From positions 1,442,225-1,506,224 of the forward strand of contig CBDETH010000008.1 in the NCBI GenBank assembly GCA_965242885.1: a DNA stretch of 64,000 nucleotides. The letters run 5' to 3'. Made by a program: the position numbers and the translations under genes. The notes below the pieces were generated by a model. The model had not been told where the DNA came from, did no database searches, and saw only the letters and a list, made by a program, of their open reading frames with translations. Shown in pieces: positions 24,808-44,022 of this stretch. Origin of the DNA: a bacterium. Lineage in GTDB: Bacteria > JAAXHH01. The number at the start of each line of letters is the position of its first letter. Position 1 is the first letter of the stretch.

Positions 24808-24941
24808 AAAAAGGTCCTATTCTGCAGGGTGCAGGGACCAAAAATCATGGGCCGAAAAACCTCGTCCATGGTATGACGCGCAAGGTCGAGTGTCAAGGGA
24901 AACAGCCGCCTTCCCACGGGCCGGTCCGCGGCTCACATGGC

Positions 24942-25223: not shown

Positions 25224-27221
25224 ATGAGCGTACGCCAGCGGTCTTCCGCGCCGTCCGGAAAGCCGGATTCCCATCCTCCCGGTACGGGGCCTCCCGCCCG
25301 GCATGGCGGACTGGCGTCGGGCATGACGCTCCGGGCGGTGGGTCTCGGCCTGGGACTCTCCGTGTTCATGGCGTGGTGGGTGGTGCATTCCGCCTTCGAA
25401 GCTCATTCTTCCTACCTTTCCATTACCCACTTGCCCATGGCGGCGCTCTTCCCCTTCATGCTGGTCGTCTTCGTCATAAACGGCCTGTTGAAGCGTTTCG
25501 CGCCCACGCGGATCTTCACCGCGCCGGAACTGATCATCATCTTCTTCATCGTGTTCACGGCCTCGGCCGTCCCGGGATGGGCCTTTACCACCTACTGGGT
25601 CGCCATCCCATCCATCCCCCACTACTACGCCAATTCCGAGAACAGATACGTCGAGTTGTTCTTCGAGTACCTGCCGACCTGGCTGATCGTCCCCGACGAA
25701 CGGCGGGCCGTGCACTGGTTCTACGAGGGCCTGCCGTCTACGGGTATCATTCCCTGGCGGGACTGGATCATCCCCATGAGCTGGTGGGGTACCTTCTTCC
25801 TGGCCCTCTTCTTCGCCAGCGCATCGCTCATGGTGATCCTGCGCAAGCAATGGATCGAAAGGGAGCGGTTGACCTTCCCGCTGGCCCGCGTTCCCCTGCT
25901 GCTCGTCGAGGATGACGACAGCGGTTCCGTGCTGCCCCGGATCGCCCGGTCCAGGGTGTTCTGGTACGGTTTTTCTATCCCCCTCTTCGTCATCCTGTGG
26001 AATATCGTCTCGTACTGGGACTTCGTGCCGCCCATCAAACTGGGCGGCGATTACCGCATCCCGATCACCCTGGCCGAATCCTTCCCCCCGATACAGTTCA
26101 AGATCAGTTTCGCTTTCATCGGCATCGGCTTCTTCACGAACCTCAATATCCTGTTCAGCATCTGGGTATTCTTCCTGTTGGCCACAATCCAGATCGGCAT
26201 CATGAGCCGGTTCGGCATTCCGAAGACGACCGAGATCGTCACGGCGCAGCACCTGGGCGGTTTTTTCATGTACACGCTCTTCGGACTCTGGATGGCGAGA
26301 CGCCACCTATACGACGTGGTGCGAAAGGCCATCGGCCGGGGACAAGACATTGATGATTCGGGGGAGTTCTTCTCGTACCGGACCGCCATGGCGGGCGTGG
26401 TGTTCGGCATCGTCTACATGTTTTTCTTTCTGATCAGCATGGGCATGTCATTTGCCGCCGCGGCCACGCTGCTGGCCACCTGCATGCTGCTCTTTATCGG
26501 GGTCACCCGCGTAGTGGCGGAAGCCGGTCTGATCTACCTGGACCTGCCCTACAACGCCCACGAATTCACGGTTTTTTCCTTCGGGTCGGCGAACCTGCAC
26601 CGGGCCGACCTCACGATACTGACGCTGTCCCAGACCTTCTCGAGGAACTGGCGGACACTGGGCATGTGCGCCATGGCACACGTCAACAAGATGGGCGACG
26701 AGATCGGCGGGGCCCGGCGCGGGATTTTCCCGGTCATCGTCTCGGCCCTCCTCATGGCCGCGGTCATATCGGTCGTCTATACGGTGTTCCTGGGTTACGA
26801 TACCACCGGAGCGGACGGGTTCGAGGACGCCTTCGGCAATGCAAAGAGAGGCTACGAGACGCTGGCGACGTGGATCAACAACCAGACGCAGTTGACCGGC
26901 GGCGAGTACATGGGCCTGGGGGTCGGCGCGCTCACCGCCTGGCTGCTGATCCTGGCCCACCACAACTTCCACTGGTGGCCGCTGCATCCCATCGGCTGGG
27001 CGGTCGCCAAGACCTGGGCCATCGGGATGATCGCCACTTCGATTTTCATGGTCTGGCTCATCAAGGCCATAATCATGAAACTGGGCGGCACGAGACTCTA
27101 CCGCCAGTCGCAGCCCTTCTTCATCGGCATGCTGGTGGGGTACGTACTGGGTGTCGCACTTTCCTACGGCGTGGATGTGATCTGGTTTCCCGCCTCGGGG
27201 CATATCGTGGAGACGTGGTAA
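25224..27221 (+). CDS. Polytopic integral membrane protein, uncharacterised family, paralog A (665 aa, ~14 predicted TM)
   Basis: Many hydrophobic helices. Conserved blocks shared with paralogs B and C: ILRKQWIERERLTFP, VAEAGL, WWPLHPIG, GQPFFIG. Confidence 0.6.
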   Translation: MSVRQRSSAPSGKPDSHPPGTGPPARHGGLASGMTLRAVGLGLGLSVFMAWWVVHSAFEAHSSYLSITHLPMAALFPFMLVVFVINGLLKRFAPTRIFTAPELIIIFFIVFTASAVPGWAFTTYWVAIPSIPHYYANSENRYVELFFEYLPTWLIVPDERRAVHWFYEGLPSTGIIPWRDWIIPMSWWGTFFLALFFASASLMVILRKQWIERERLTFPLARVPLLLVEDDDSGSVLPRIARSRVFWYGFSIPLFVILWNIVSYWDFVPPIKLGGDYRIPITLAESFPPIQFKISFAFIGIGFFTNLNILFSIWVFFLLATIQIGIMSRFGIPKTTEIVTAQHLGGFFMYTLFGLWMARRHLYDVVRKAIGRGQDIDDSGEFFSYRTAMAGVVFGIVYMFFFLISMGMSFAAAATLLATCMLLFIGVTRVVAEAGLIYLDLPYNAHEFTVFSFGSANLHRADLTILTLSQTFSRNWRTLGMCAMAHVNKMGDEIGGARRGIFPVIVSALLMAAVISVVYTVFLGYDTTGADGFEDAFGNAKRGYETLATWINNQTQLTGGEYMGLGVGALTAWLLILAHHNFHWWPLHPIGWAVAKTWAIGMIATSIFMVWLIKAIIMKLGGTRLYRQSQPFFIGMLVGYVLGVALSYGVDVIWFPASGHIVETW

Positions 27222-27354
27222 TCGCCGGCAACGAGGCGGCGCGCGGTACCGAGGCGGAACGAGATATCGAGGCGAACCGCACGGTCGAGGCGGCCGCACA
27301 GTCAAGGCGGACCGCGCCGCCGAAAATGAAGACGAAAACGAAAGGAGTACCTGT

Positions 27355-27792
27355 ATGAGCGTGGAACAGGTCATGCCCGACGAGGCGGCCAGGCTGGTCG
27401 AATCCGAGGGGTACACATACATCGACGTCCGGTCGGTTCCTGAATTCGACCAGGGCCATCCCGCGCCGGCCGTGAACATCCCCTTGCTGCACGCGGACGA
27501 GCAGACCGGGCAGATGACGCCCAACCCCGATTTCGTGCGGGTGATGAAAGCAAATTATGCTGAGGATTCGAAGCTGGTACTGGGTTGCCGCACCGGCCAG
27601 CGTTCCAATCACGCCGCCGAACTGCTGCAGTCGATGGGATACCAATCGGTCGTCAACATGCGCTGCGGGTTCAGCGGCGAGATGACGCCCTTCGGCCAGG
27701 TGGTCAATCCGGGATGGGAGGAAGTGGGCCTGCCGGTGAGCCATGACAGCGGTGAGGGCGTGAGTTACGCGTCGCTCGCGGCAAAAGGGTGA
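27355..27792 (+). CDS. Single-domain rhodanese (sulfurtransferase)
   Basis: Active-site loop LGCRTGQRS; rhodanese fold; SD aaaggag 7 nt upstream. Confidence 0.8.
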   Translation: MSVEQVMPDEAARLVESEGYTYIDVRSVPEFDQGHPAPAVNIPLLHADEQTGQMTPNPDFVRVMKANYAEDSKLVLGCRTGQRSNHAAELLQSMGYQSVVNMRCGFSGEMTPFGQVVNPGWEEVGLPVSHDSGEGVSYASLAAKG

Positions 27793-27852
27793 GTTACGCA
27801 TCGCTCGCGGCAAAGTCGGAAGTGGACTGGCGGGGTCGTCGGCGGGTTCCGG

Positions 27853-28974
27853 CTATCCCCGCAACACCTCTTCGTAGTAGGCTTCGTATTTCGGGACCAC
27901 GGCCTCTTCCGCGAAGTTATCCAGCACCCGTTGCCGGGCCTTCCGTCCGACCGCCTCTCGCAAGCCGTCGTTTGCAAGCAGGTCCGTGGCGTGCCGGGCC
28001 ATCTGCCCGATGTCGCCCACTTCGGTGATGTAGCCCGTTTCCCCGTGGCGTACGAGTTCCGGCAGGCCGCCGGCGTTGGCGCCGATCACCGGGACGCCGC
28101 AACTCATCGCCTCCAGGGCCGACAGGCCGAAGCTCTCCTGTTCGCTGGGAAGCAGGTACAGGTCGGAACAGGAAAGAATCCGGTCCACTCCCTCCTGCTC
28201 TCCCATAAAGACCACGCCGTCCTCCAGGCCCAGTTCCCGGGCCAGTTCCTGCATGGGGATGCGCTCCGGACCTTCCCCCACGAGCAGCAGCTTGCACTTG
28301 ACTACTCGCCGCACCTCCGCGTACATGCGGATGATGTCCCCGATGCGCTTGACCGGCCGGAAATTCGAGACGTGCGCGATGACCTTCTCGTCATCGTCGA
28401 CGAAATTGCTGATGTCGCAGTGGCCGTCCCCCCTGCGGAACCGTTCGACGTCGACGAAATTGGGGATCACACGGATGTCCTTATCGATGTCGAAGAGGGA
28501 CAGCGTGTCGCGCTTGAGGGACTCGGAGACCGCCGTGACCCCCTGGCTTTCCTCGATGCTGAACCGGGTGATCCGGTAGAAGGACTTGTCGCTTCCCACG
28601 AGGGTGATATCGGTGCCGTGCAGGGTCGTGATGACCTTGACGTCCCGGTCGCGCAGCATGTGCCGCGCCAGGAAGGCGCAGGTGGCGTGGGGCACGGCGT
28701 AGTGCACGTGCAGGATATCCAGATTCGCCTCGGAGGCCACGTCCGCCATTTTCGCCGCGAGCGCGAGGGTGTAGGGCGGGTACTTGAACAGCGGGTAGGG
28801 CATGACCTCCACGTTGTGGAAGGAGATGTTCTGGCTGTATTCCTGCAGGCGGAAGGGGATCGAATAGCTCACGAAATGGACCCTGTGCCCCTTCCGGGCC
28901 AGTGCCTGTCCCAGCTCGGCGGCGATGGCGCCGCTTCCTCCGTAGGTGGGATAGCAGGTGATGCCGATGTTCAT
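27853..28974 (-). CDS. bshA: N-acetyl-alpha-D-glucosaminyl L-malate synthase (GT4 glycosyltransferase)
   Basis: N-terminus MNIGITCYPTYGGSGAIAAELGQALARKGHRVHFVSYSIPFRL is near-colinear with Bacillus BshA ([43 protein letters not shown]); GT4 C-terminal domain. Confidence 0.8.
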   Translation of the reverse strand: MNIGITCYPTYGGSGAIAAELGQALARKGHRVHFVSYSIPFRLQEYSQNISFHNVEVMPYPLFKYPPYTLALAAKMADVASEANLDILHVHYAVPHATCAFLARHMLRDRDVKVITTLHGTDITLVGSDKSFYRITRFSIEESQGVTAVSESLKRDTLSLFDIDKDIRVIPNFVDVERFRRGDGHCDISNFVDDDEKVIAHVSNFRPVKRIGDIIRMYAEVRRVVKCKLLLVGEGPERIPMQELARELGLEDGVVFMGEQEGVDRILSCSDLYLLPSEQESFGLSALEAMSCGVPVIGANAGGLPELVRHGETGYITEVGDIGQMARHATDLLANDGLREAVGRKARQRVLDNFAEEAVVPKYEAYYEEVLRG

Positions 28975-29702
28975 CGGTTTCCGCCTCTGCCCACGAAATG
29001 GGCCAGGGGATCGTCGACCTGAAGGTACTCCCGGACGACGAAAGGCTCTCCGTACCGCGCGCCGATCAGCTGTCCGTAGTAACGGCTCTGGGCTTCCACC
29101 TCCTCGAGGAACTCGGGCCGGCTGATGAAGGTCTCCGGCTCGGTAGAGTCCGGGTCGTGGAACTGCGACCGGTGGGCCTTCACCGCCTCGATTTTCCGGC
29201 TGAACGTCGACGTGATGTCGACGATAAAGGAAGGCCGGGGTTCCCGGTAGCGGTGGTGGGTAAGGTAGAAGACCACCTTCCGGGGCCTGAAGGCCGGGTG
29301 GTCCGTCTCGAGTTTCTCCAGACCGGCCAGAAAGGCCGCGTCCCGGGCCAGCCGGGCGGTCGCCCCGTGATCGGGATGGCGGGCGACCTCGTGAGGTACG
29401 AGGAGCATATCGGGCTTGTACCGGCGAATGGCGTCGATGAGGGCGTCGCGGTGCGTCGGGCTGGTGCCGACTCGGGCGTCCGGCAATTCGAGGTTCAGCC
29501 TTTCGGACAAGCCGAGCACTTCCGCCGCCGCCGCCGCTTCCCCTTTCCGTCCGTCGACCGTTCCCCGGGTACCCATCTCGCCCAGGCTCATGTCGACGAT
29601 ACCGGTGGCATATCCCAGGTCGGCGAACCGGATCATCAGTCCGCCGCAGTGCAGCTCCACGTCGTCCGGGTGCGGGGATACGGCAAGCACATCGAGTTTC
29701 AT
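28971..29702 (-). CDS. bshB1: N-acetyl-alpha-D-glucosaminyl L-malate deacetylase (PIG-L/LmbE family)
   Basis: LAVSPHPDDVELHCGG ... YKPDMLLVPHEVARHPDH motifs of LmbE-type deacetylases; colinear with BshB1; 4-nt overlaps with both bshA and bshC. Confidence 0.75.
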   Translation of the reverse strand: MKLDVLAVSPHPDDVELHCGGLMIRFADLGYATGIVDMSLGEMGTRGTVDGRKGEAAAAAEVLGLSERLNLELPDARVGTSPTHRDALIDAIRRYKPDMLLVPHEVARHPDHGATARLARDAAFLAGLEKLETDHPAFRPRKVVFYLTHHRYREPRPSFIVDITSTFSRKIEAVKAHRSQFHDPDSTEPETFISRPEFLEEVEAQSRYYGQLIGARYGEPFVVREYLQVDDPLAHFVGRGGNR

Positions 29703-31333
29703 AACGGGGTCATCCTGTGTCTGAAGTCCGTTTCGTCCGTGGCCTCGATGAGGGTATTCATGACGTCGAAACCGTGAAGGGCGACGTACTGCCAGATGTT
29801 GGCCACCCGTTCCTGGAGGTGCCCGTTGGGATACAACAGGCGGTCCGCCCGCATGATCTGTCCGCGCATGACCCCGTCCGCCTTCTTCAGGGCGCGGAGC
29901 GTCTTTTCTTCCAATCTGCCCAGGGCGAAGCGGGTCTTCCGCTCCGAGGCCTCGACGATCCGGCTCAGCCCGGGGTCGATGGAAGTCACGTGCCCTTTGA
30001 GGTTTCTGTAGTGGGCTTCCACGTCGCCCCGTGCGGCCCGGAGACCCTCGGTGACCGGTACCGGCATCTCTTCCCGGAGTTTCCGGTCGACCACGGATTC
30101 GATGCCCTGGACGAAATGGGAGATCGCGAGGCCGTGTTTCTCCAGGATCCGGGCGGTCCTCGCGCCCACCAGCGTATGGGACGCGCGGGGATAGACCACG
30201 GGGAAGGGCAGGCCGAACTGCCGGTAGACCCCGCCGAGCTGGCCATAGTAGGCGATTTCCGCCGGACCGCCGATATAGGTCAGCGTCGGAAACAGCGTGT
30301 CCTGCACCAGGGGCCGGGTGATGACGTTGTGCGTGAACCGACCGGGCGTATCCTTAAGTATCCCTAGCAGTTCCTCGCCGCTAAAGGAGAGGCCTTCGTC
30401 CCGGCTGCTGAACCGCCCGTCCTCGTAGCGCAGGGCATTGCGCTGCCCGTCCTGGTACAGAAACAAGTTCACCGCGTCCTGGGACCGGGAGACCTGAGGA
30501 TGAAACCCGGCGTGCTCCAGATCGCGGGACGCCTCCAGGACCGAACGGGTAGTCGTGAGCGGTGCGCGGATTTCCTGCTCGAAAACGGGACGCATAAGGG
30601 GTTTCAGCGCCGGGTCGGTGGGGTCGACGAGGACCAGGCCATGGTCCCGGAACAGCAGCGTCATGAGACGAGCGAAGGCATCGGACAGCGAAGTCCCGGC
30701 CGTACAGTGCCGCCGAAGCGCCTCGATGGCGGACGGGCGGTATTCCGAGTCGGGCAGGGCCTCGGCGAACTGCCCGAGCAGCGTTTCGATTTCGGGTCCG
30801 AGCAGGCGGTCGCTCGCGGACCGGCGATCGGCGGGGTCGTCGGGGCTCAGTTCGAACCTGAGGGCGTCCCCGTCCGTCCGGCAGACGTGGACATGGTTGA
30901 TTTCGGCGTAGTCATGGTCGTCGGCGGCCATCCAGAAGACGGGCACGGCCCGCACGCCGGTTTCCTCAGAGACCCTTTTCGCCAGCTTGACCGCCGTTAC
31001 AGCCTTGTAGATGGTGAACAGGGGACCGGTCAACAGGCCCGTCTGCTGTCCGGTGGATACGACGAAGGTATCGTCCCCGGCGAGGGAACGGGCGTTGGCC
31101 AGGACCGTCTCGTCCGCTCCGAACCGGCCGTTCTGGACCTCGAGAATCCTGGCGAGCGCCTTTCTCGGCGGCGGCGCGGCGCGGGACTGGACGGCCTCGA
31201 TCATGCGCGGCCATACATCCGGATCGCGTGGATCGTGGGTGTAGAAAGGCCGCAACGACTCGAAGTCTTCGAGAAAGGTATGCAGCAGGTGGTCCGGCAA
31301 CACCTGTCGGTAGTCCACTGCATGATTGTTCAT
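29699..31333 (-). CDS. bshC: Bacillithiol biosynthesis cysteine-adding enzyme
   Basis: BshC signature VVSTGQQTGLLTGPLFTIYKAVTAVKLAK; about 545 aa from ATG 31333 (MNNHAVDY...). The ORF frame extends upstream to 31507 without homology. Confidence 0.75.
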   Translation of the reverse strand: MNNHAVDYRQVLPDHLLHTFLEDFESLRPFYTHDPRDPDVWPRMIEAVQSRAAPPPRKALARILEVQNGRFGADETVLANARSLAGDDTFVVSTGQQTGLLTGPLFTIYKAVTAVKLAKRVSEETGVRAVPVFWMAADDHDYAEINHVHVCRTDGDALRFELSPDDPADRRSASDRLLGPEIETLLGQFAEALPDSEYRPSAIEALRRHCTAGTSLSDAFARLMTLLFRDHGLVLVDPTDPALKPLMRPVFEQEIRAPLTTTRSVLEASRDLEHAGFHPQVSRSQDAVNLFLYQDGQRNALRYEDGRFSSRDEGLSFSGEELLGILKDTPGRFTHNVITRPLVQDTLFPTLTYIGGPAEIAYYGQLGGVYRQFGLPFPVVYPRASHTLVGARTARILEKHGLAISHFVQGIESVVDRKLREEMPVPVTEGLRAARGDVEAHYRNLKGHVTSIDPGLSRIVEASERKTRFALGRLEEKTLRALKKADGVMRGQIMRADRLLYPNGHLQERVANIWQYVALHGFDVMNTLIEATDETDFRHRMTPL

Positions 31334-33876
31334 GTAACCGGCCTTGTTCGGCGCTTTTCCATGATGAGCAGGTAGGCGGGCAGCGCGACCAGGGCTGTCG
31401 CCAGCGTGGCGATCTCTCCCACGTTGGCCATGATCCCGAAGGAATGCAGGCCCCGGTTGGACGTGAGCATGAGCGAGGTGTACCCGATCAGCGTCGTGGA
31501 CGAGCACATGACCAGGGCCGCGCCCGTATGCTGTACCATATTACCGATGGAACCCCGTCCGTCAAGGCGGTAGCGTTGATACAGGTTCACGCTGTAGTCT
31601 ACCCCGATGCCCAGCGTAGTGGGTATGACGATGAAGTTGAAGAAGTTCACCTTGATGTCGAAGAGCGCGATGAAGCCGCCCATAACCAGCATGCCGCCCA
31701 GCAGGGACGCCAGGATGACCACCGACGCGTGGATGCTTCGGAAGGCCAGTACGAGGAGCGTGATCACGCCCACGAAGCAGGCGATGGTGGCGATGGGCCC
31801 GTCGCTGTCCACGGCCTTCAGCATGTCGGCGAAGACCACGGCCTCTCCGGAAGAATAGATGACTTCATCGTCCGGAAGTTGGTTGGAACGGACGACCTCC
31901 GCGAACCGGATCAGGTTCCGGCCGTTCCAGAGCCCGGCGTCCGACCGCGGGTAAACGTAGATCAGCCTGCCCACCGTCCCGTCCCGCTCCTCGTAGGGCC
32001 GCGTTAGCGCTTCGGGCAGGTCGTCCACGGTGATCCCGTCCAGGCTCAGGTTGTCGCGGAAATCGTTGATCTTCGCGAGCTGGTCGGGCGGTATGCCGAG
32101 TTCGTCGGGCGGATTCGTGTCGAGCATGTACTCGATGTCCCAGAGGACGTCGATCTTGTCCTCCTGGTCCTCCGGCAGCAGGTCGTAAATGGTCCGGACC
32201 CGGTCGATGGTCGGATTGGGCACTTCCTTTTCGGCCTCTTTCTTGTCCAGCACGGCCCGGCGTATGCCCGGCACCTGGTCCAGGCGGTCCGCCAGGATGA
32301 CGGCAGGCGACTGCGATATGCCGAAGAGGGCGTTGACGCGGTGGTTGAGGATCCGCTCGTAAGTGTCGCCCCGCGGCTCGTTGCGCAGCTTCGAGAAGTC
32401 GTACTCGAAGGAGTTCGGAAGCCACCACACCAGCAGGGCGGCGCCCAGCACGACCAGGGAGAAACTCGTGCCCACCACGGCCCGCGGCTTCTTCTGCACC
32501 AGGTTGGCGAGACGGCTCATCGACCTGCCCCGGGAAACCTTCCGGGTCCAGGTCTTCCGTCCGAAGGCGGTGCGGTCCCAGAGCATCAGCAGCGCCGGCA
32601 GGATCGAGAAGGTCGAAAGCCAGCACAGTAGCATGCCCAGGCCGCCGATAAACCCGAAATGGTTGAAGCCCCGGAAATCGGTGATCATGAGGGTACCGTA
32701 GGCCAGGCCGGTGGACGCCGCCGAGGTGACCGTCGCCGTGAGCGTGTTCCGGAAGGCGATCTGCACGCCGTCCCGGGCGTTCTCTCCCCGCAGCCGCTCT
32801 TCCTTGTACCGGGACATCAGGATCAGGCCGTAGTTGATGCCGTTCCCAATGATGATGGCGCCCAGGAAGGCGGTCTGCATGTTCAGGTAGCCGATGCGGA
32901 AGTAGGTCAGGCAGAACGTCCAGAGGATGCCGACGACCACGACCAGCGTGATGTTGATGACCGGGACGATTGTACGGAAGTAGAGGAAGATGGCCAGGGC
33001 GACCAGTGACAGCGTGACGCCGGCCGACGTGAAGATCTCCCGGTTTACGGACTCGTACTGATCGAGGATCAAGCGGTACTTGCCGGTGAGCCCGACCTTC
33101 AGCGACGGGTGGTAGGACGCGGGTTCGAGGCCTTCCGCGATGGCCAGGACCCGTTCGCACAGGTCTCGCGAGAAGGACACGCCGGTCGACGACCCGAAGG
33201 GTTTCAGCACCATGACGAGAAACTGCCCCTGCTCGTCCTGTCCCGTGAAATAACCGTCGACCCACTTGTCCAGCTTCTCCGACGCCTGTTTCTCGTACTT
33301 CTCCTCCAGGTCGCTCACGGTGAACGGTTCGTCTTCCGTCTCCAGGCCGAGGTCTTCCTCGGAAACGAAAAGGGGATTCTGTTCCAGTTTCGTCTTCAGG
33401 ATCTGCCGGCTCAGCCGGCTCTGGATCTCTTCCAGGTCCTCCAGGTCGGCGTACAGGTACTTGTGGTTTTCGTAGAACCGCTTTTCGTCGTCCACCCTGT
33501 ACTCGATGTAACGGACATATCCTTCCGGGAGATCGGACCGGAGCCGGCCGGCGAGGTCGTCGGCGTACCGCCGGGCGGCGGCCAGGTCTTCCGTTTCAAT
33601 TACGACCGTCAGGTTGCCGATGCCGCCGACACGCTCCGTGAGCCGGTGTATGTCGTCGACGCTCCGGTAGCCTTCGGGGAGCAGTTCGACAAAGTCGGTT
33701 TTCAGCTGAAGTCTGGAGGCGAAATGGACGGAAAGCAGGGCGGAAAGCAGCGCGAACAGCAGGACCTTTGCCGGATGGCGGCAGATGAAGGCGATGTACC
33801 TGTTCAGGAAGCGGTCTAGGGCGGCTCTGGTTTCGGCCTTCACGGTGCATTCCTCGTGTGAAACGCGCGCATCCAA
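31330..33876 (-). CDS. MMPL / RND-superfamily exporter (HpnN-like, 12-TM with two large periplasmic loops)
   Basis: 848 aa. Two 6-TM bundles (SSD-like), each preceded by a large soluble loop. Its stop overlaps the bshC start (ATGA). The start codon is uncertain: TTG at 33876 or GTG at 33840. Confidence 0.7.
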   Translation of the reverse strand: MDARVSHEECTVKAETRAALDRFLNRYIAFICRHPAKVLLFALLSALLSVHFASRLQLKTDFVELLPEGYRSVDDIHRLTERVGGIGNLTVVIETEDLAAARRYADDLAGRLRSDLPEGYVRYIEYRVDDEKRFYENHKYLYADLEDLEEIQSRLSRQILKTKLEQNPLFVSEEDLGLETEDEPFTVSDLEEKYEKQASEKLDKWVDGYFTGQDEQGQFLVMVLKPFGSSTGVSFSRDLCERVLAIAEGLEPASYHPSLKVGLTGKYRLILDQYESVNREIFTSAGVTLSLVALAIFLYFRTIVPVINITLVVVVGILWTFCLTYFRIGYLNMQTAFLGAIIIGNGINYGLILMSRYKEERLRGENARDGVQIAFRNTLTATVTSAASTGLAYGTLMITDFRGFNHFGFIGGLGMLLCWLSTFSILPALLMLWDRTAFGRKTWTRKVSRGRSMSRLANLVQKKPRAVVGTSFSLVVLGAALLVWWLPNSFEYDFSKLRNEPRGDTYERILNHRVNALFGISQSPAVILADRLDQVPGIRRAVLDKKEAEKEVPNPTIDRVRTIYDLLPEDQEDKIDVLWDIEYMLDTNPPDELGIPPDQLAKINDFRDNLSLDGITVDDLPEALTRPYEERDGTVGRLIYVYPRSDAGLWNGRNLIRFAEVVRSNQLPDDEVIYSSGEAVVFADMLKAVDSDGPIATIACFVGVITLLVLAFRSIHASVVILASLLGGMLVMGGFIALFDIKVNFFNFIVIPTTLGIGVDYSVNLYQRYRLDGRGSIGNMVQHTGAALVMCSSTTLIGYTSLMLTSNRGLHSFGIMANVGEIATLATALVALPAYLLIMEKRRTRPVT

Positions 33877-34079
33877 GGTATGGAAATATCCCCGTAAACC
33901 ACTGGGGTGTCAACCACTAAAACCGCTAGAACAACGGGGCGGAAGGACTTCGTAGAAAGGCGTTTTTCTTTGACTTATCCCGTGCACGACCTTACATATG
34001 CTGGACCCGTATTTTTAACACAATCCATTGCTGAAAACGCACGGACCGTTCTCCGCCCACTACATTTTCCGCCTACTCC

Positions 34080-36074: not shown

Positions 36075-36075
36075 C

Positions 36076-39000
36076 GTGTATTCGCGGATATTCGGTTTTT
36101 TCTTCCTCGCCGTGGGCGTCCTGTTGTTCCTCGCCGTGGCCGTCGCCGGCCCGGCCTGGGTGACAGAGCACGTGATCCTCAGGATCGTCTCCATTCCGGA
36201 AGACGTGCCGCCCAGGCCCCTCGAGGAAGCGCCGGTGTCCTGGGAGGAAGTTTCCGAAATCGTTACGCGGGAGCGTGTGGAGGCTCATGTCCGGGCGATG
36301 AGCGAGAACCCGTCGCGCGTCGTCGGCTATCCGGGAAACCGGGCGGCCATGGAATACGTGGTCGATGCCTTCCGTGCCGGAGGCCTGGCAGAGGTCACGG
36401 TCGACACCTTCACGGTATCCTCGCCCGTCGACCATGGTTTCACGCTGACCGTGCACGACGCCGTGGAGACCGAGATACCGGTGTATCAGTTCTGGCCCAA
36501 CCTGGTCCGGCTGAATTCCTTTCCTGACGGGATCCGGGGACCCCTGCACTACGGCCAGCGGGGCGAATTCCAGGCCTTCAACGGGAAAGAGATCGAGGGC
36601 AGCATCGTCCTGGTCGATTTCGACGGGCGCGACCAGTACCTCAACGCGCGGATGCTCGGAGCCCGGGCCGTGCTGTTCCACGACAGCGGCCCCGGTTCCG
36701 TGACCAACAACCAGGCCCAGCGCAAGATCCTGGACGTGCCCGCCGACGTGCCGCGCTTCTGGGTCCCGGACCCCCACGCCGCCGCTGTCCTGGCGGCCGC
36801 GCGGTCCGGCGATGTCGAAGTGACGATCCGTGGACACATGACGTGGGAACGGGCCGAGACCTGGAACGTCATGGGGTGGATACCGGGCCGGGACGAACCG
36901 CTGCCGGGGAGCGACGGCACGGAGAAATGGAAAGACCGGATCGTCGTGCTGTCGGCGTTCTACGACGCCATGTCGGTCGTACCCGGTCTGGCGCCGGGCG
37001 CCGAGAGCGCGGGGGGTATCGCCGCCATGCTGGAGCTGATGGACGTGCTCCGGGCCCATCCGCCGGGATACACCGTGCTGTTCCTGGCCACGTCCGCCCA
37101 TTTCCACGGGCTGCAGGGCGTAAACGACTTCCTGGACCGGCACCAGCGAAAGGACGAGTTCTTCCTGGAACGGATCCCCGAAGAGGACCGGATCCCCTTC
37201 GACCTGTTCCTGGGCCTGGACCTCACCAGCAGGGCGGACCAGGTCGGCCTGTTCAGCTACGGCGATTTCATCTTCTTCACCTCGAATCTGGATATCCTGT
37301 ACGAACCCTATGCGGACCGGTACCTGAATTACGCGCGCAAGGCCGGGGTCCACGATGATGAGGATAGCCGGACGGCCTATCTCAACACGCTGACGCACCC
37401 GCTCCGGTCGCAGGAAAGCTTCATGCCCGCCGGTCCCGCCTTCGACCACGAGATGGTCACGCTCGCCGGGCTCCACGGCATGACCTTCGCCACGGTAAAC
37501 GACAACAGACTCCTCATCGACACCCCGAAGGACCGGATCGAGTACGTCGATTTCCCCAACCTGGTCCGGCAGATCCGAACGCTGGGCACGCTGCTGCCGG
37601 CCATGCTGTCCGATCCCGTGGCCTTCGACGTGGACGAGTCGATTCGGCTCAAGGACGAGGGCCGCGACATTGAAGGCCGGGTCCTCGAATTCGACCGAAC
37701 GGTGGATTTCTTCAAGCCCAATACCCCGGTCTCCGACGCCCTGGTCGTCTACGAGCCCGGATACCAGAGCCACAGCGGCGTTCGTGGGTTCATGGTTACC
37801 CACGCCGACTCGCTGGGGCATTTCCGGCACTCCATGGTCCGGTTCCCCCGGGGACCGACGGAACTGCGCAGTTACGGCCTCGCCGCCGACGGCCGGATCG
37901 TGTACGCCCCCGACCTCGGTGAAGAAGGCAACGCCACCTTTCCCCTCGCGGTGCCGAACTCATCCAAGGTGAACAATACCATACAGGTCCTCTTCCCCTG
38001 CGAGGAGATCAACCTCTTCGATATCGTGGACCCCGGCGTCTTCGTCGCCCTCGACAACCTGACCGTACTCGGCCGGGACAACAGCCCGCTGCGCAAGTAC
38101 GGCGCGGCCTTCGTGGAAGACCAGAGTTTCTTCGGCAACTGGATGACCAACGCCGCGGTGGTCTTCGCCCGGCCCGAGGACCGGGTCAAGATGTTCATGA
38201 GCTCGGGTCCCCGGGGTGTCAAGTACCTGCTGACCAACACGCCCGAATCGTGGCTCGACGAACCGCCGGTAAGCATCTCGGACGACGCCATGGCCCTGGC
38301 CCAGGGACGGGGATTCACGGCGGACCAGGGCCTGATCCTCTACCCCTTCTACCAGAGCGCCCTGGACCTGTGGTCGCTCAACCGGGCCCGCCTGATGAAA
38401 CTGGAGGATCACGGCGTGACCAACGCCCGGGCCGCCGAGCTGCACGAGGAGAGCACCGAAGCGCTTCGGGCCGCCCGGGAGGCCCTGGAGAACCGCCGAT
38501 ACGACGCCTTCGCCGCGCGGTCGAGAGAGGCGTGGGGCTTCGAGGCGCGGGCTTATCCCGACGTGCGGTACGCCGCGGACGATACGGTGGACGGCATCGT
38601 GTTCTACTTCATGCTGCTGGTCCCCTTCTGTTTCTTCCTCGAACGGCTTTTCTTCGGTTTCACGGACATTCGGAAGCGGCTGGCCTCGGTGGGCGTCATC
38701 TTCGCGGCGGTCTTCATGCTGCTGCAGAACGTGCACCCCGCCTTCCAACTCAGCCTGACGCCGTACATGGTCTTTCTCGCCTTCCTCATCCTGGCCATGG
38801 CGCTGATCATCATCACCATGATCGTCACCCGGTTCGACACCGAGATGAAGAACCTGACCCGGTCTGCGGCCGGCCTCCACGAGGCGGACATCGGCCGGCT
38901 GAGCGCCACGGCCGTGGCCATTTCCCTGGGGATATCGAACCTGCGCAAGCGGAAGATGCGCACGGCGCTGACCGCGGTCACGCTGACCCTGCTGACCTTC

Positions 39001-40644
39001 ACCGTCTTGTCCTTCACTTCCTTCCGGACCGGCATCCAGTTCTATACGCTGGACCGCGAAAACACCCCGCCGTACGACGGCGTCCTCATGCGCAGCCTGT
39101 CGTGGCACTCCCTGCCCACGTCCTTCCTGCCCTACGTGGAGAACGCCTTCGAAGACCAGGCGGACGTGGTACCCCGGTCCTGGTACGAGCCGGAGGACAT
39201 GGTCAGCCCCTATATCGACCTGCGTGTGCGGGGCAAGGGGACCGCCACCACGGTACAATCCATCCTGGGACTGCACGCCGACGAACCGGCCGTCACCGCG
39301 CTGGACCGCTACCTGGTGCCGGGCGGACGGTGGTTCGCCCCGGACGAAAGGGCGGCCTGCCTGCTGCCCACGGAACTGGCCGAGCGGCTGGACGTGGGGC
39401 CGGAGGACGTGGGTACGGCGGAGGTGGAGATCCTCGGTGGACGCTATACGGTGATCGGACTGCTCGATTCCGAGGGGTTCGACGCCTACCGGGACATGGA
39501 CGACGAGAGCATCATGCCCGCCAGCTTCTCCATGACACGCTCGCTTACCGATATGGACATCGAAGTGTTCATGTCCACCATCCAGGCCTCCGAACACCTG
39601 CCGTCCCGCAACGTGCTGGTCCTGCCCTACCGGCAGACGCTCGACCTGAACGGGTCCACGCGGTCCGTGGCCATCGCGGGGTTCTCAGGCGGCGAAGAGC
39701 TCCGCGATTCCGTTGAGGCCTTCATGTCGCGGGTCCTCCTGGCCGTGTTCGTCGGCATGGAAGACGAAGTGAGGGTCTACAGCTCCCTGGGCGCTACTTC
39801 GGTCTCGGGCCTGGCCAACCTGATCATCCCGGTGCTCATCGCGGCGTTCCTGGTGTTGAATACCATGATGGGCGCCGTGTTCGAACGGTTCCGGGAAATC
39901 GGCGTGTACAGCGCGGTCGGGCTGGCCCCGAACCACGTCGCCGCCCTGTTCATCGCCGAAGCCGCCGTATTCGCGACGCTCGGGGCCGTCTTCGGTTACC
40001 TGTCCGGCCAGATCATCACCATGGGGCTCTCGCAATGGGACCTGCTGGGTGGCATGTCGCTCAACTATTCCTCCCTTTCGACCGTTTACGCCACGTTGGT
40101 CGTCATGGCCATCGTCTTCCTGTCCACCCTCTACCCGGCGAAGAAGGCCGCGGACATGACGGTAGAGGACGTGACGCGGCGCTGGTCGCCCCCGCCGCCC
40201 GACGAAGACGACTGGTGCTTCGAGTTCCCGTTCACGGTGACCGTACCCGAAGCGTTGCCGCTGTCGGGCTACCTGAACCACATCTTCCAGACCCATGAAG
40301 ACAGTTCGGCAGAGGACTTCGTCGCCGAGGGGACCACGCTCGACGCGATACCGGGGGATACCTACGACACGTATCACGTGGCATCCACCGTCTGGCTGGC
40401 GCCGTACGACCTCGCCATCAGCCAGGACGTGCGGCTTGAACTGGAGCCCGTGCTTCACGAAAGACTGTACCGCATCCTGATCGTGATCCACCGCCGCAGC
40501 GGTGACCTGGCGCAATGGCAGACGATCAACCGGCGGTTCTTCACCGTATTGAGGAAGCGGTTTCTGGTATGGCGGACCCTGGCAGAGCCCATAAAGGCGC
40601 GGTACCGGGATATCAAAGCCTTCGATCGCCACACGGCCCTGTAA
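36076..40644 (+). CDS. Fusion protein: N-terminal TM + M28-peptidase-like/PA ectodomain + two FtsX-like permease modules (1522 aa)
   Basis: PA domain (GSIVLVDFDGRDQYLNARMLGARAVLFHD). M28-like core (VVLSAFYDAMSVVPGLAPGAESAGGIAAMLELMDVL...LATSAHFHG). FtsX/MacB-type TM1 (LRKRKMRTALTAVTLTLLTFTVLSF). C-terminal FtsX domain (GAVFERFREIGVYSAVGLAPNHVAALFIAEAAVFATLGAVFGYLSG). Confidence 0.7.
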   Translation: MYSRIFGFFFLAVGVLLFLAVAVAGPAWVTEHVILRIVSIPEDVPPRPLEEAPVSWEEVSEIVTRERVEAHVRAMSENPSRVVGYPGNRAAMEYVVDAFRAGGLAEVTVDTFTVSSPVDHGFTLTVHDAVETEIPVYQFWPNLVRLNSFPDGIRGPLHYGQRGEFQAFNGKEIEGSIVLVDFDGRDQYLNARMLGARAVLFHDSGPGSVTNNQAQRKILDVPADVPRFWVPDPHAAAVLAAARSGDVEVTIRGHMTWERAETWNVMGWIPGRDEPLPGSDGTEKWKDRIVVLSAFYDAMSVVPGLAPGAESAGGIAAMLELMDVLRAHPPGYTVLFLATSAHFHGLQGVNDFLDRHQRKDEFFLERIPEEDRIPFDLFLGLDLTSRADQVGLFSYGDFIFFTSNLDILYEPYADRYLNYARKAGVHDDEDSRTAYLNTLTHPLRSQESFMPAGPAFDHEMVTLAGLHGMTFATVNDNRLLIDTPKDRIEYVDFPNLVRQIRTLGTLLPAMLSDPVAFDVDESIRLKDEGRDIEGRVLEFDRTVDFFKPNTPVSDALVVYEPGYQSHSGVRGFMVTHADSLGHFRHSMVRFPRGPTELRSYGLAADGRIVYAPDLGEEGNATFPLAVPNSSKVNNTIQVLFPCEEINLFDIVDPGVFVALDNLTVLGRDNSPLRKYGAAFVEDQSFFGNWMTNAAVVFARPEDRVKMFMSSGPRGVKYLLTNTPESWLDEPPVSISDDAMALAQGRGFTADQGLILYPFYQSALDLWSLNRARLMKLEDHGVTNARAAELHEESTEALRAAREALENRRYDAFAARSREAWGFEARAYPDVRYAADDTVDGIVFYFMLLVPFCFFLERLFFGFTDIRKRLASVGVIFAAVFMLLQNVHPAFQLSLTPYMVFLAFLILAMALIIITMIVTRFDTEMKNLTRSAAGLHEADIGRLSATAVAISLGISNLRKRKMRTALTAVTLTLLTFTVLSFTSFRTGIQFYTLDRENTPPYDGVLMRSLSWHSLPTSFLPYVENAFEDQADVVPRSWYEPEDMVSPYIDLRVRGKGTATTVQSILGLHADEPAVTALDRYLVPGGRWFAPDERAACLLPTELAERLDVGPEDVGTAEVEILGGRYTVIGLLDSEGFDAYRDMDDESIMPASFSMTRSLTDMDIEVFMSTIQASEHLPSRNVLVLPYRQTLDLNGSTRSVAIAGFSGGEELRDSVEAFMSRVLLAVFVGMEDEVRVYSSLGATSVSGLANLIIPVLIAAFLVLNTMMGAVFERFREIGVYSAVGLAPNHVAALFIAEAAVFATLGAVFGYLSGQIITMGLSQWDLLGGMSLNYSSLSTVYATLVVMAIVFLSTLYPAKKAADMTVEDVTRRWSPPPPDEDDWCFEFPFTVTVPEALPLSGYLNHIFQTHEDSSAEDFVAEGTTLDAIPGDTYDTYHVASTVWLAPYDLAISQDVRLELEPVLHERLYRILIVIHRRSGDLAQWQTINRRFFTVLRKRFLVWRTLAEPIKARYRDIKAFDRHTAL

Positions 40645-40727
40645 CCTGCGGAGAGGCAACGCGATGCGCGGTGCGATCCGGAATGAGGAAAAGCGATGTG
40701 CGGCGCGAACATGAGAGAGGAGCGGCC

Positions 40728-41885
40728 ATGTACGACCTGATCATCAAGGGCGGCCATGTCATCGATCCCGATAACGGCATCAACGGAAGCCGGGACGTCG
40801 CCGTCGACGGCGGCCTGATCGCGGCGGTGGAACACGACATCCCGGCGGAACACGGTCGAAGGGTCGCCCGCGTCCACGGCCATTACGTCACGCCCGGGCT
40901 GATCGACATCCACATGCACGCTTACGGCGGCTACCGGGGGTGGGTTTTCCCCGACGCCCACGTGCTTCCCAACGGCGTGACCACGGTGCTCGATACCGGG
41001 GGCGCGGGCTGGAAGAAGTTCGAAGACTTCAAGGACACGGTCATCGCGGATTCCACAACCCGGGTCCTGGCGCTGATCAACATCGTGGGCGCCGGCATGG
41101 AAGGCGCCGTGGAGCAGGACGTTTCGGAGATGGACCCGGTACCCTGCGGGGACATGATCGCCCGGTACCCGGAGCACGTCGTCGGGTCCAAGACCGCCCA
41201 TTTCGGCGGTCCGGGCTGGGAGGCGGTGGACGGCGCCGTCGAAGCGGCCCGTCGAAGCGGCACCATCGCCATGATCGATTTCGCGCCGAAGCCGACCCGG
41301 AGCTACCGGGACCTGCTGCTGAAGAAACTGAGCCCCGGCGACATCCATACGCATCTCTACGCGCAGCACATACCCCTGCTGGACGAGCACGGCCGGGTGA
41401 ACGACTACGTCCGGGAAGCGCGGGACAAGGGCATCCTGTTCGACCTGGGCCACGGCGGCGGCAGCTTCTGGTTTCGCATCGCCGTGCCGGCCATCGAGCA
41501 GGGGTTCCTGCCGGATACCATCAGTACGGACCTCCACAAGTACAGCGCCCTGATGCCGAACGCGAGCATGAACACGACCATGTCGAAATGCCTGAACATG
41601 GGGATGACGCTGGAGGACGTGGTCATGCGCTCCACGCGGAACCCCGCCCGGGCCATCCGGCGCCCCGAACTGGGCACGCTGAGCATCGGCGCGGAGGCGG
41701 ACGTCGCCGTGCTGGAGCTGGAATACGGAGAGTTCGGTTTCGTGGACTCGGGCCACGCGCGCATGCGCGGCGACCGGCGTCTGAGGTGCCTGTTGACGGT
41801 GCGTGCCGGCGAGGTGGTCTGGGACCTGAACGGCCTGACGCGGCCGGACTGGGACAAGGCGGGAAAATACATCAGGGCGGATTAG
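40728..41885 (+). CDS. Amidohydrolase-superfamily metallohydrolase (dihydroorotase / D-aminoacylase-like)
   Basis: N-terminus YDLIIKGGHVIDPDNG ... GLIDIHMHAY (HxH metal site). SD gagaggag lies upstream of ATG 40728. Confidence 0.75.
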   Translation: MYDLIIKGGHVIDPDNGINGSRDVAVDGGLIAAVEHDIPAEHGRRVARVHGHYVTPGLIDIHMHAYGGYRGWVFPDAHVLPNGVTTVLDTGGAGWKKFEDFKDTVIADSTTRVLALINIVGAGMEGAVEQDVSEMDPVPCGDMIARYPEHVVGSKTAHFGGPGWEAVDGAVEAARRSGTIAMIDFAPKPTRSYRDLLLKKLSPGDIHTHLYAQHIPLLDEHGRVNDYVREARDKGILFDLGHGGGSFWFRIAVPAIEQGFLPDTISTDLHKYSALMPNASMNTTMSKCLNMGMTLEDVVMRSTRNPARAIRRPELGTLSIGAEADVAVLELEYGEFGFVDSGHARMRGDRRLRCLLTVRAGEVVWDLNGLTRPDWDKAGKYIRAD

Positions 41886-41970
41886 CCGGACGGACCGGGT
41901 TGAGTACGGGCGCGGCTGAAAACCGGTACGCGCCGCACCCATTCGGAAATGCCATGACCGAGCGTAAACC

Positions 41971-44022
41971 ATGAGCGACACCACCAGGCGTGAACACCAG
42001 GATCGGCACGACCGGGAAGCCGATTCCGCCGGACAGGACGACCGGTGGCAGATCGTGCCGGACAGCCTGCCCTACGAGGACGGGTTCAGCAGCCGGATCA
42101 TCTGGGCCGCCTTCTTCGTCGGGCTGGTCATGCTTCCGGGGGCGATCTACCTGGAACTGGTGACCGGAAAGAGTTTCGCGGGCGCCGCGGAATGGGTCAC
42201 CATCATCATGTTCATCGAGATCGGGAAGCGCCTGTTCATCAAGCTGAAGCCCCAGGAAGCCATCATCCTCTACTGGCTCGCTGCCGGCCTGGCGGCGACG
42301 GGACTGGGCGCCAGCGGCATGGCGGCCGGGTCATCGGTGCACGGCGCGCCTTTCGCCAAGATGATCTGGTTCCAGTATCTGATCCAGTCCCCCCAGGCGG
42401 ACGGCCTGGCCCAGCTTCTGCCCCAGTGGGTATCGCCGCCCAGAGGTTCCGATTCCCTGATCACCCGGACCCTCTTCTCCATGGAGTGGCTGGAACCCAT
42501 CCTGCTGGCCGTCCTCGTGTCCATCCTCGGCCTGGTCAACGCCCTTTCGCTGGGATACGTGCTCTTCCGCATCACGGCGGACACCGAACGCCTGCCCTTT
42601 CCCCTGGCGCCCGTACAGGCGGCCGGCGCCACCGCGCTGGCGGAATCGTCCGCGGGCGAAGAGACCTGGCGGTGGCGCCTGTTTACCGTCGGCGCCATGA
42701 TCGGCCTGGGTTGGGGTATTCTGTACGTCGTCGTTCCGACGGTATCGGGCGTGGTGCTGACCAAGGGGGTCGAAGTCTTCCCCATTCCCTTCGCGGACTT
42801 TACGCCGCGGGTCCGGGACGTGCTGCCCGCGTCGCCCATCGGCATCGGCACGGACATGGCCACGCTCCTGGTGGGTTTCGTTCTGCCCTTCTGGATCGTG
42901 GTCGGTACTTTCATCAGTTCTTTCGTCGTCACCTTCATCGCCAACCCGGCCCTCTACCACTTCGGCCTTTTGCACAGCTGGGCGCCGGGGATGAGCACCA
43001 TCCCCACTTCCATCAACAACACCATCGATTTCTGGCTGAGTTTTTCCTCCATCGGCACTTCGCTGGTCATCGGCCTGATCGGCCTGGTCGCCTTCGCCCG
43101 CGCCCTGCGACGAGACCCGGACGGCCCGTCGGGCGCCCAGGGACCCCGCCGGCCGCCGCCGGACCGGGGCGATTTCAGGCTGCCTATCCCCATCGCGCTC
43201 TGGGCGGTCTCGACCCTTTGCTTCATTCTCCTGGTCTACTACCTCGAACCCACGTTTCCGGTATGGATCTCCCTGGTATTCGGGTTCCTGTGGACGCCCT
43301 TCTTCTCCTACATCGGCGCGCGCATGATCGGTCTCACGGGCTCGCCCTACGGATCGTCCTTCCCCTACGCGAGGGAGGGCTCCTTCTACCTGTCGGGCTA
43401 CAAGGGCGTGGCCATCTGGTTCGCGCCGGTTCCGCTCTTCGATCACAGCGGCGTGGTCGCGACCTTCCGGCAGCTGGAACTCACCCGAACGCGATTTCCA
43501 AGCCTGGTCAAACTCTATATATTGAGCCTGTTGCTGCTCATCGTATTCAGTTTCCTGTTCTACGCCCTGATCTGGAAACTGGCGCCCATACCGTCCGCGG
43601 CCTATCCCTTCGTCGAGAAGATGTGGCCGCTGCAGGCGACGATGGAGACGATCTGGATCAAGTCGACCCTGCCGGGCGGATCGGATGTGATCGGGCAGCT
43701 CATCAAGTGGGAGTACATCGGCGCCGGGATGGGGTTCACGGTGGCCCTGTACGGGGTCCTGAGCCTGCTCAAAGCGCCGCCGCTGCTGTTCTACGGCCTG
43801 GTCGCGGGACTGGGCACCGGCGCTTGGATTCATTACACGTTGCCCACGTTCATCGGAGCGATGCTGGGCCGGTTCTATTTCGGGCGGCGCTATGGCGAGA
43901 AGAGATGGCGGGCCTACGCGCCCGTGATCCTCGCCGGGTACGGGTGCGGCCTGGGCCTGATCGGCATGGCGGCCGTCTCCCTGGTGCTGATCGCCAAGTC
44001 CACGTCCCAGATCCTGTTCTGA
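41971..44022 (+). CDS. Polytopic integral membrane protein, uncharacterised family, divergent paralog C (683 aa)
   Basis: Same overall layout as A and B. Weaker shared blocks (FRITADTERLPFP; C-terminal ...RWRAYAPVILAGYGCGLGLIG). Confidence 0.55.
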   Translation: MSDTTRREHQDRHDREADSAGQDDRWQIVPDSLPYEDGFSSRIIWAAFFVGLVMLPGAIYLELVTGKSFAGAAEWVTIIMFIEIGKRLFIKLKPQEAIILYWLAAGLAATGLGASGMAAGSSVHGAPFAKMIWFQYLIQSPQADGLAQLLPQWVSPPRGSDSLITRTLFSMEWLEPILLAVLVSILGLVNALSLGYVLFRITADTERLPFPLAPVQAAGATALAESSAGEETWRWRLFTVGAMIGLGWGILYVVVPTVSGVVLTKGVEVFPIPFADFTPRVRDVLPASPIGIGTDMATLLVGFVLPFWIVVGTFISSFVVTFIANPALYHFGLLHSWAPGMSTIPTSINNTIDFWLSFSSIGTSLVIGLIGLVAFARALRRDPDGPSGAQGPRRPPPDRGDFRLPIPIALWAVSTLCFILLVYYLEPTFPVWISLVFGFLWTPFFSYIGARMIGLTGSPYGSSFPYAREGSFYLSGYKGVAIWFAPVPLFDHSGVVATFRQLELTRTRFPSLVKLYILSLLLLIVFSFLFYALIWKLAPIPSAAYPFVEKMWPLQATMETIWIKSTLPGGSDVIGQLIKWEYIGAGMGFTVALYGVLSLLKAPPLLFYGLVAGLGTGAWIHYTLPTFIGAMLGRFYFGRRYGEKRWRAYAPVILAGYGCGLGLIGMAAVSLVLIAKSTSQILF

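Follow-up and report, generated by a model that had tools for sequence, protein, structure and literature searches.

Transporters of the OPT/YSL superfamily (Pfam PF03169; Transporter Classification TC 2.A.67) are, to our knowledge, importers wherever they have been characterised. The solved example, barley HvYS1 (Yellow Stripe 1, PDB 7wsr), is a proton-driven symporter with an elevator-like mechanism, which forms a dimer via its scaffold domains (PMC9691689). Two further Pfam entries, DUF6785 (PF20581) and DUF6784 (PF20580), comprise bacterial and archaeal membrane proteins and carry no assigned function or fold; a full-text literature search found no paper naming either of them. In this study, we analysed a stretch of 64,000 nucleotides (hereafter the window) from a bacterium of the lineage JAAXHH01 (contig CBDETH010000008.1, positions 1,442,225 to 1,506,224 of the forward strand), in which three large polytopic membrane proteins, named A, B and C, are encoded within 19 kb, with a very large FtsX-type permease (referred to as GIANT) between B and C. 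All three are divergent members of the OPT/YSL superfamily and fall into two families that parted long ago, with A and B in DUF6785/DUF6784 and C in a sister family without a Pfam model. B and C are parts of a conserved gene module, of which GIANT is the third and defining member. We hold these structural and module statements, taken together, with very high confidence. The genes concerned are:

25224-27221, plus strand: A, 665 aa, DUF6785+DUF6784; a stand-alone OPT-superfamily paralogue without linkage to a giant permease
34080-36074, plus strand: B, 664 aa, DUF6785+DUF6784, predicted OPT/YSL fold; opens the module operon
36076-40644, plus strand: GIANT, 1,522 aa, with PA, degenerate M28, MacB_PCD and FtsX domains; between B and C
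41971-44022, plus strand: C, 683 aa, predicted OPT/YSL fold; family without a Pfam model

The three open reading frames (ORFs) A, B and C had been pointed out in an earlier reading of the DNA (the sequence-only reading), and both ORF calling and hydropathy profiles (approximately 11-12 peaks each; grand average of hydropathicity, GRAVY, 0.56-0.64) confirm them as large polytopic proteins. The sequence blocks quoted there for A and B are real and fall within a BLASTP alignment of 34% identity over 640 aa (E 2e-116). Both proteins are full-length, high-scoring members of the two Pfam families, well above the gathering thresholds of 25 bits (PF20581) and 26.4 bits (PF20580): A matches DUF6785 with E 1.7e-113 (380.3 bits) and DUF6784 with E 2.6e-22 (79.3 bits), and B matches DUF6785 with E 8.2e-110 (368.1 bits) and DUF6784 with 81.0 bits. 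C is not a member, as the Pfam scan gave no match to it, DUF6785 and DUF6784 included, and its BLASTP comparisons with A and B were not significant (best E 0.017 and 9e-4, short segments). The NCBIfam scan found no match for A, B or C, and searching the PDB by sequence, from single proteins as well as from profiles, gave none for the B or C families. A relationship emerged in the profile-profile comparison, in which the C family (25 sequences) and the DUF6785 family (29 sequences) were aligned over 561 colinear columns, nearly their full length, with a probability of 94.9% (E 4.5e-8). An ERLxFP motif common to A, B and C lies inside this alignment. Judged by these profiles, C is a remote homologue of A and B; the description of C as the more divergent copy holds at this level, and is nearly unverifiable from the sequences alone.

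AlphaFold2 (AF2) models of B and C had one unique fold match in common, and the three-dimensional fold predicted for both is that of a solved OPT/YSL transporter, at only 12% identity to HvYS1. None of A, B and C matched PF03169 at E<=1, i.e. the OPT threshold of Pfam is not reached directly, and a single member of the C family (1/25) matched this model, with E 7e-7. The link is provided by a second tier of full-length matches to the C profile (E 1e-63 to 1e-91), which includes four proteins (P0427, P0444, P0457 and P0507) passing the OPT threshold with 33-65.5 bits (cut-off 25.8). The DUF6785 profile in turn matched an alignment of this second tier with a probability of 98.9% (E 2.5e-17, 560 columns). 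The fold match and these profile links to OPT-passing proteins are the grounds on which A, B and C are placed in the OPT/YSL superfamily, and the family that the sequence-only reading could not name has thereby been assigned. That reading had also held that a clear match to a ubiquitous, well-understood transporter family would count against it. This applies in part, since a family has been found, but we would not call it well understood: we know of no characterised bacterial OPT relative of this type. A proton-coupled elevator mechanism of the HvYS1 type would be the default expectation for all three proteins. The assignment gives a fold and a superfamily to DUF6785/DUF6784 and to the C-type family, two families with expansions in Latescibacterota, Gemmatimonadota and related lineages, which are represented here mostly by metagenome-assembled genomes (MAGs).

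The C family is large: an exhaustive profile search yielded 1,056 representative clusters (approximately 1,000 at 50% identity), and the MAG homologues of C bear the NCBI label 'peptide transporter'. It also includes long variants (810-1,080 aa; e.g. P0385, 1,083 aa, and P0366, 1,055 aa) with an insertion near profile position ~558, which holds a PDZ domain in P0385 and a weak propeller-like repeat in P0366. PDZ domains bind peptide C-termini.

According to the sequence-only reading, A, B and C had arisen by local triplication. A recent triplication followed by fast divergence could appeal to three homologous, same-strand genes within 19 kb, yet it is effectively refuted. A and B share the mentioned 34% identity, while C, a member of another family, is detectable by profiles alone. 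Moreover, orthologues of A, B and C are found at 93-98% identity in related genomes, and all three are syntenic in one related contig of 3.72 Mb (L001), in which A and B each have an orthologue of 93% identity (the placement of the B locus in relatives was made via the 93%-identical protein P0121). A is only ~35% identical to the orthologues of B. The gene order in this contig is that of the window: A, rhodanese, bshA/B/C-like genes, MMPL, B, GIANT, amidohydrolase, C, 2-hydroxyacid dehydrogenase and Ldh_2. A itself clusters with DUF6785 genes outside the module, and its nearest non-orthologues are a convergent DUF6785 pair without GIANT linkage, located in a sulfatase/oxidoreductase cluster (L005; 40.6% and 38.5%). 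We infer that A is a separate paralogue outside the module, with its own, different substrate. The copy number, too, had been considered unusual. Related genomes carry several DUF6785 and C-type genes, with at least 5 DUF6785 genes in the 3.72-Mb contig and 2 C-type genes per related chromosome (L010/L050, L018/L064 and L019/L063). Several copies are normal in this lineage, and three of them in the window are therefore not unusual in themselves.

In the 93%-related genome, insertion sequence (IS) elements (DDE_Tnp_1, Transposase_mut) were found beside DUF6785 genes (L001 2136-3077; L088 3208-4443 and 6412-7353). One of them separates the A orthologue from the rhodanese gene (L001), and further ones are inserted between a second copy of GIANT and the DUF6785 gene nearest to it (L088).

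The module was delineated in two surveys. The C-centred survey covered 80 loci of species-representative genomes, whose six-frame ORFs were searched with family hidden Markov models. A GIANT homologue was present within 10 kb in 60 of these loci and was on the strand of C in 61/61 cases; 39 of the 60 GIANT-positive loci contained a DUF6785 gene as well. The remainder was composed of loci with DUF6785 only (5), loci with full flanks and neither gene (7) and short contigs (8). The GIANT-centred survey of 80 metagenome loci, made to remove the sampling bias of the former, revealed an OPT-fold gene within 3 kb of GIANT in 67 loci (67/72 assessable; 8 loci were truncated), while 5 loci with full flanks were devoid of any OPT-fold gene. 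Among the 67 paired loci, 41 had C only, 17 had both types and 9 had DUF6785 only, and C was immediately downstream of GIANT, on the same strand, in 53 loci. Several gene orders were seen: (i) GIANT-DUF6785-C, (ii) DUF6785-C-GIANT (L007, a 5.46-Mb MAG, in which the three genes are packed tightly on one strand), (iii) DUF6785-GIANT-amidohydrolase-C (the window) and (iv) GIANT-C only. The identity of the GIANT homologues to the window protein spans 99% to ~32%, and the MAGs encoding them bear the labels Gemmatimonadota, Latescibacterota, Zixibacteria and Planctomycetota. That the linkage is kept through such divergence and rearrangement indicates functional coupling. The literature search found no description of an OPT-fold/GIANT pairing and no paper linking FtsX, M28 and Latescibacteria. 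We know of no established way in which orphan FtsX-type permeases work without an adjacent ATPase. The OPT-fold genes are a fixed genomic partner for such a permease, and this constitutes a concrete, testable lead.

Some loci deviate from the simple arrangements. In an 8.08-Mb genome (L090 1-12545), a tandem DUF6785-GIANT-DUF6785-GIANT array is present on one strand, with a PhyH gene after it. In Latescibacterota (L021 3-7431 and L022-L035), same-strand genes upstream of C encode a 1,095-aa TPR/YfiO-like protein, MotA/ExbB, ExbD and two proteins without a Pfam match. This set, found in about 17-28 loci (possibly phylogenetically redundant) of one Latescibacterota clade, looks like a TonB/Tol-like energising system beside the module. 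A 2,784-codon ORF (L069), considered as a possible Rosetta-stone fusion, was rejected: it is no DUF6785 fusion, but a normal GIANT preceded by an open frame or an extension.

The GTG start codon of GIANT lies 1 nt after the stop codon of B. Above the Pfam thresholds, the protein matches FtsX (PF02687; E 2e-13, 50.9 bits, cut-off 25.5), MacB_PCD (PF12704; E 2e-6, 28.7 bits, cut-off 27) and Peptidase_M28 (E 2e-9, 37.9 bits, cut-off 21.3; residues 284-498), and a PA domain was found at residues 168-214 (E 4e-4). Its hydropathy-based layout starts with one transmembrane (TM) segment (TM1, 5-23), a ~810-aa extracytoplasmic region holding PA and M28, three TMs (837-917) and TM5 (965-983), which are followed by the MacB periplasmic core domain, three TMs forming the FtsX domain (1243-1352) and a conserved tail of ~170 aa, predicted to be cytoplasmic. 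Such an eight-TM, 1+3/1+3 topology suggests a fused FtsX/MacB(LolE)-type permease pair, and 'duplicated' is here a statement about topology, because Pfam recognises the second repeat only. The tail, strongly conserved among homologues, and the region 500-836 had no Pfam, PADLOC or meaningful PDB match.

With the type VII ABC permeases (MacB, LolC/LolE, FtsX) and the ADOP proteins, GIANT has in common the FtsX and MacB core and the fused-dimer-like topology, and it resembles the ADOP orphan duplicated permeases (TIGR03434) in the lack of an adjacent ATPase. It differs from MacB, LolC and ADOP in the ~810-aa PA/M28-like first periplasmic domain, the conserved ~170-aa tail and the pairing with OPT-fold genes, a giant neighbour that likewise sets the B and C genes apart from OPT/YSL. 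Its scores against the ADOP, MacB and LolC models of NCBIfam (21-26 bits) are far below the cut-offs (473-966), with 21.1 bits for TIGR03434 (cut-off 622.3). A further match came from the candidate defence families of PADLOC, where GIANT 771-1410 aligned with positions 9-601 of 810 of 'CARF_m8--CARF_LolE_TM' (PDLC01991; E 1.2e-56). GIANT and its homologues cover ~9-628 of the 810 positions and leave the last ~200 unmatched; the matched part is presumably the permease core, and the unmatched end the CARF part. GIANT also matches a sister model (PDLC01990), which by its name has a beta-galactosidase domain on the same permease core. There may thus be a broader group of giant LolE/FtsX permeases that differ in their periplasmic hydrolase-like domains. 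A reading of the locus as a defence system, raised by the PADLOC result, was rejected: the alignment is confined to the permease core, no PADLOC match was found for A, B or C, and the neighbouring genes are catabolic.

The PA+M28 arrangement places the periplasmic part of GIANT beside the M28 metallopeptidases and their relatives, which include PA-containing proteins of the transferrin receptor and GCPII family. By sequence, GIANT matches AAP, YwaD and Nicalin around the metal-binding strand, and Nicalin, which we take to be a non-catalytic M28 relative, was among the few PDB sequence matches. GIANT was aligned to AAP (2anp) and YwaD (6hc6), and residues were counted in 49 GIANT homologues. 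The canonical zinc ligands (His, Asp, Glu, Asp, His) and catalytic Glu are not preserved as a set. The first His ligand is replaced by F in 23 and Y in 10 homologues (H in 16), the bridging Asp by an invariant E310 and the catalytic/ligand Glu-Glu by an invariant H342-F343. The Asp ligand is kept as an invariant D382, and the second His ligand (residue 458) is S in 35 and H in 12; we take D382 and residue 458 to be ligand positions from a motif comparison with AAP, not from a tool alignment. With the canonical aminopeptidase site replaced, these residues suggest that the M28 domain of GIANT is a binding or altered-metal module rather than an aminopeptidase, and it is the invariance of the replacement residues that speaks for a retained binding or altered metal site.

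In the window, the module is embedded in one same-strand run of six genes (B, GIANT, amidohydrolase, C, D-2-hydroxyacid dehydrogenase and Ldh_2), bounded by a ~200-nt divergent intergenic region (33877-34079) and a hairpin. The additional elements of this run are:

40728-41885, plus strand: amidohydrolase/deacetylase-family metallohydrolase, 385 aa, between GIANT and C (NCBIfam PRK09237, E 5e-111)
44071-45105, plus strand: D-isomer-specific 2-hydroxyacid dehydrogenase, directly after C (Pfam 2-Hacid_dh_C, 1.3e-57)
45124-46182, plus strand: Ldh_2-family oxidoreductase, which ends the same-strand run (Pfam Ldh_2, 8e-106)
46200-46233, no strand: GC-rich palindromic hairpin, 15 pairs with T/A runs on both sides, between the convergent Ldh_2 and DUF2911 genes

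We propose, with a probability of roughly 0.5, that the module is a nutrient-uptake device of the inner membrane, working from the periplasm to the cytoplasm. The periplasmic PA/M28-like domain of GIANT would capture, and perhaps present or gate, a peptide-like or acylated small organic substrate, in the manner of a tethered receptor. The adjacent OPT-fold protein or proteins would then translocate it by a proton-coupled elevator movement, as in Yellow Stripe 1, and in this bacterium the cargo would be processed by three cytoplasmic, putatively co-transcribed enzymes, namely the amidohydrolase, the D-2-hydroxyacid dehydrogenase and the Ldh_2 oxidoreductase. Either OPT-fold type could serve in this role, with B and C as alternative or complementary carriers; having both probably widens or splits specificity, with no obligatory heteromer. 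The direction of transport and a peptide-like cargo are supported by the catabolic enzymes co-oriented downstream of the module, the ExbB/ExbD/TPR genes upstream of C in the Latescibacterota clade, the PA/M28 ectodomain and the PDZ insertion in one long C-type variant. DUF6785 copies in this lineage, A included, sit among catabolic genes.

The surroundings of other DUF6785 copies also speak for uptake. One is part of a sugar-type ABC importer operon (SBP_bac_1, two BPD_transp_1, DUF6785 and Peripla_BP; L002 1-6866), and a convergent pair lies amid sulfatase, AP_endonuc_2, SDR and GFO_IDH genes (L171, and L005 around 8001-13970). This suggests that some DUF6785 members handle carbohydrate-derived rather than peptide substrates.

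Several points weigh against the proposed uptake. The mechanism is argued throughout from gene neighbourhood and fold, and the AF2 model of C is of only moderate confidence (pLDDT, the predicted local distance difference test, 68.6). As the canonical catalytic Glu-Glu is replaced, the generation of peptides by the M28 domain cannot simply be assumed. The 7 full-flank C-type loci and the many DUF6785 genes without GIANT mean that OPT-fold proteins can work alone. The characterised FtsX/MacB-type proteins known to us are ABC-ATPase-driven exporters, extractors or mechanotransducers, not importers. The second FtsX repeat of GIANT also keeps an ER..EIG loop motif between TM6 and TM7, corresponding to what we take to be the helix that couples MacB to its nucleotide-binding domain, and its preservation would suggest that an ATPase partner is encoded elsewhere. 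Finally, in ~13 distant loci, GIANT-C is followed by a ~300-aa protein without a Pfam match, a PqqD-like protein, a small FtsX (210-234 aa) and an ABC ATPase (L148 16709-21537; L163 8619-11480; L102, L113, L122, L149, L155, L158, L160, L161, L164 and L166); L148 additionally encodes a canonical M28 peptidase (E 2.6e-40).

Alternatively, GIANT could be a type VII ABC (MacB/LolCDE/FtsEX-like) mechanotransducer, powered by an ATPase encoded elsewhere and engaged in export or envelope maintenance. Its substrate would be periplasmic or located in the outer leaflet (a peptide, lipopeptide or cell-wall fragment), and the OPT-fold partner would either deliver this substrate from the cytoplasm or recycle the product. 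The FtsX and MacB_PCD domains, the conserved TM6-TM7 loop motif and the ATPase-extended loci, in which PqqD represents a peptide-binding RRE-type domain, fit this view, as does the M28 domain, degenerate like those of regulatory pseudo-enzymes. However, when all ORFs of the 64-kb window were searched by phmmer with a module-linked ABC ATPase, no homologue was detected, and within 10 kb of most module loci there is none either. Catabolic genes for cytoplasmic enzymes follow C here, and OPT/YSL proteins such as HvYS1 (PMC9691689) are, as far as we know, importers when characterised. We consider both the export function and the accompanying role of the OPT-fold partner unlikely. The same low standing is given to the view that the OPT-type proteins are independent, co-regulated importers with different substrates, with GIANT as an unrelated envelope protein encoded in the same nutrient-acquisition islands, neither in complex with them nor required for their function. 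C-type genes alone in 7 full-flank loci, DUF6785 alone in the sugar-ABC and sulfatase clusters, the 5 full-flank GIANT loci devoid of OPT-fold genes and the island-like pattern of extra DUF6785 paralogues, often within 6-8 kb of the module, are what such independence would produce. Nevertheless, the adjacency in 67/72 assessable GIANT loci, the agreement in strand with C in 61/61 cases, the gaps often near zero and the linkage kept through gene-order permutation, down to 32-35% GIANT identity, fit coupling better than chance. Even if there were no complex, the module would still help to recognise nutrient-uptake islands in the annotation of these genomes.

A closer association has been considered in two forms. 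The OPT-fold carrier and the orphan GIANT might be a physical hybrid transporter of an undescribed kind, a proton-driven elevator mechanically coupled to a MacB-like pseudo-peptidase receptor device, in which the carrier either stands in for the absent ABC ATPase in supplying energy or takes the periplasm-captured substrate directly. This seems to us slightly less probable than either export or independence; if true, binding-protein-dependent uptake would have a counterpart among secondary transporters, and a pairing that reflects a complex would link the capture of a substrate in the periplasm to secondary transport in a new manner. The sequence-only reading, for its part, had suggested that the proteins might be subunits of a hetero-oligomer. 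B and C do belong to one conserved gene module, but their being obligatory subunits of one transporter, analogous to the Yellow Stripe 1 homodimer with diverged protomers, is improbable. The dimeric state of HvYS1, via its scaffold domains (PMC9691689), and the direct adjacency of DUF6785 and C genes with few-nt spacers in many genomes (L044, L046, L052 and L007) speak for such an assembly; against it, 41 of the 67 GIANT-linked loci possess C only and 9 possess DUF6785 only, and in the window two genes separate B from C. It is the predominance of loci with one type that makes an obligatory heteromer of B and C unlikely.

The amidohydrolase and the dehydrogenase are putative lineage-specific add-ons for cargo processing and would not belong to the module core; their genes are limited to this lineage and to relatives down to about 71-76% C identity. 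The amidohydrolase was found in L001, L008-L015 and L017-L019 and is absent from more distant module loci, and the D-2-hydroxyacid dehydrogenase is syntenic in relatives down to the said identity (L014-L017). In distant Latescibacterota loci, too, an Ldh_2 homologue recurs in the vicinity of C, encoded on the opposite strand. Among the PDB relatives of the amidohydrolase are 8je0 ('Amidase', 4e-45) and 2ogj (4e-41). The latter we take to belong to the cog3964 group hydrolysing acetyl-(R)-mandelate-type esters, which would fit a D-specific 2-hydroxyacid dehydrogenase as the subsequent step and is offered as a lead only. The hairpin at 46200-46233 is, by pattern matching, likely a bidirectional terminator closing the run from B to Ldh_2; apart from it, a promoter/terminator scan stayed at background level, and no riboswitch or other RNA family of Rfam was found in the window.

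The genes that the sequence-only reading had given as neighbours, i.e. a rhodanese for A, an FtsX fusion for B and an amidohydrolase for C, are indeed there. A is divergent from minus-strand NAD-epimerase and PhyH dioxygenase genes, and its surroundings are:

23029-23823, minus strand: PhyH dioxygenase, Pfam-supported
23836-24807, minus strand: NAD-dependent epimerase, Pfam-supported
27355-27792, plus strand: rhodanese-domain protein downstream of A, loosely linked to it (Pfam Rhodanese, 3.2e-15)

A 631-aa ORF on the plus strand (22981-24876) was rejected as a gene; it is rich in R, G, V, D and H, has no Pfam match and is probably an antisense artefact. Between A and B, on the minus strand (27853-31507), are genes encoding a GT4 glycosyltransferase (BshA-like), a PIG-L deacetylase (BshB-like) and BshC (Rossmann-like_BshC and CC_BshC, E 4e-107), a trio that by its domains looks like a bacillithiol biosynthesis set. 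An MMPL-family transporter gene (31330-33876) lies beside it, and this arrangement is kept in L001. Upstream of these regions, on the minus strand, two paralogous DUF4097 'toastrack' proteins are encoded (19316-20611 and 21608-22966), one of them with an extra DUF7330 match. The window overall looks rich in catabolic and uptake genes, and further examples are a urocanase gene for histidine utilisation (47736-49475) and an MFS transporter gene (62383-63690), the product of which passes the NCBIfam model for L-lactate transporters (331 bits, cut-off 320).

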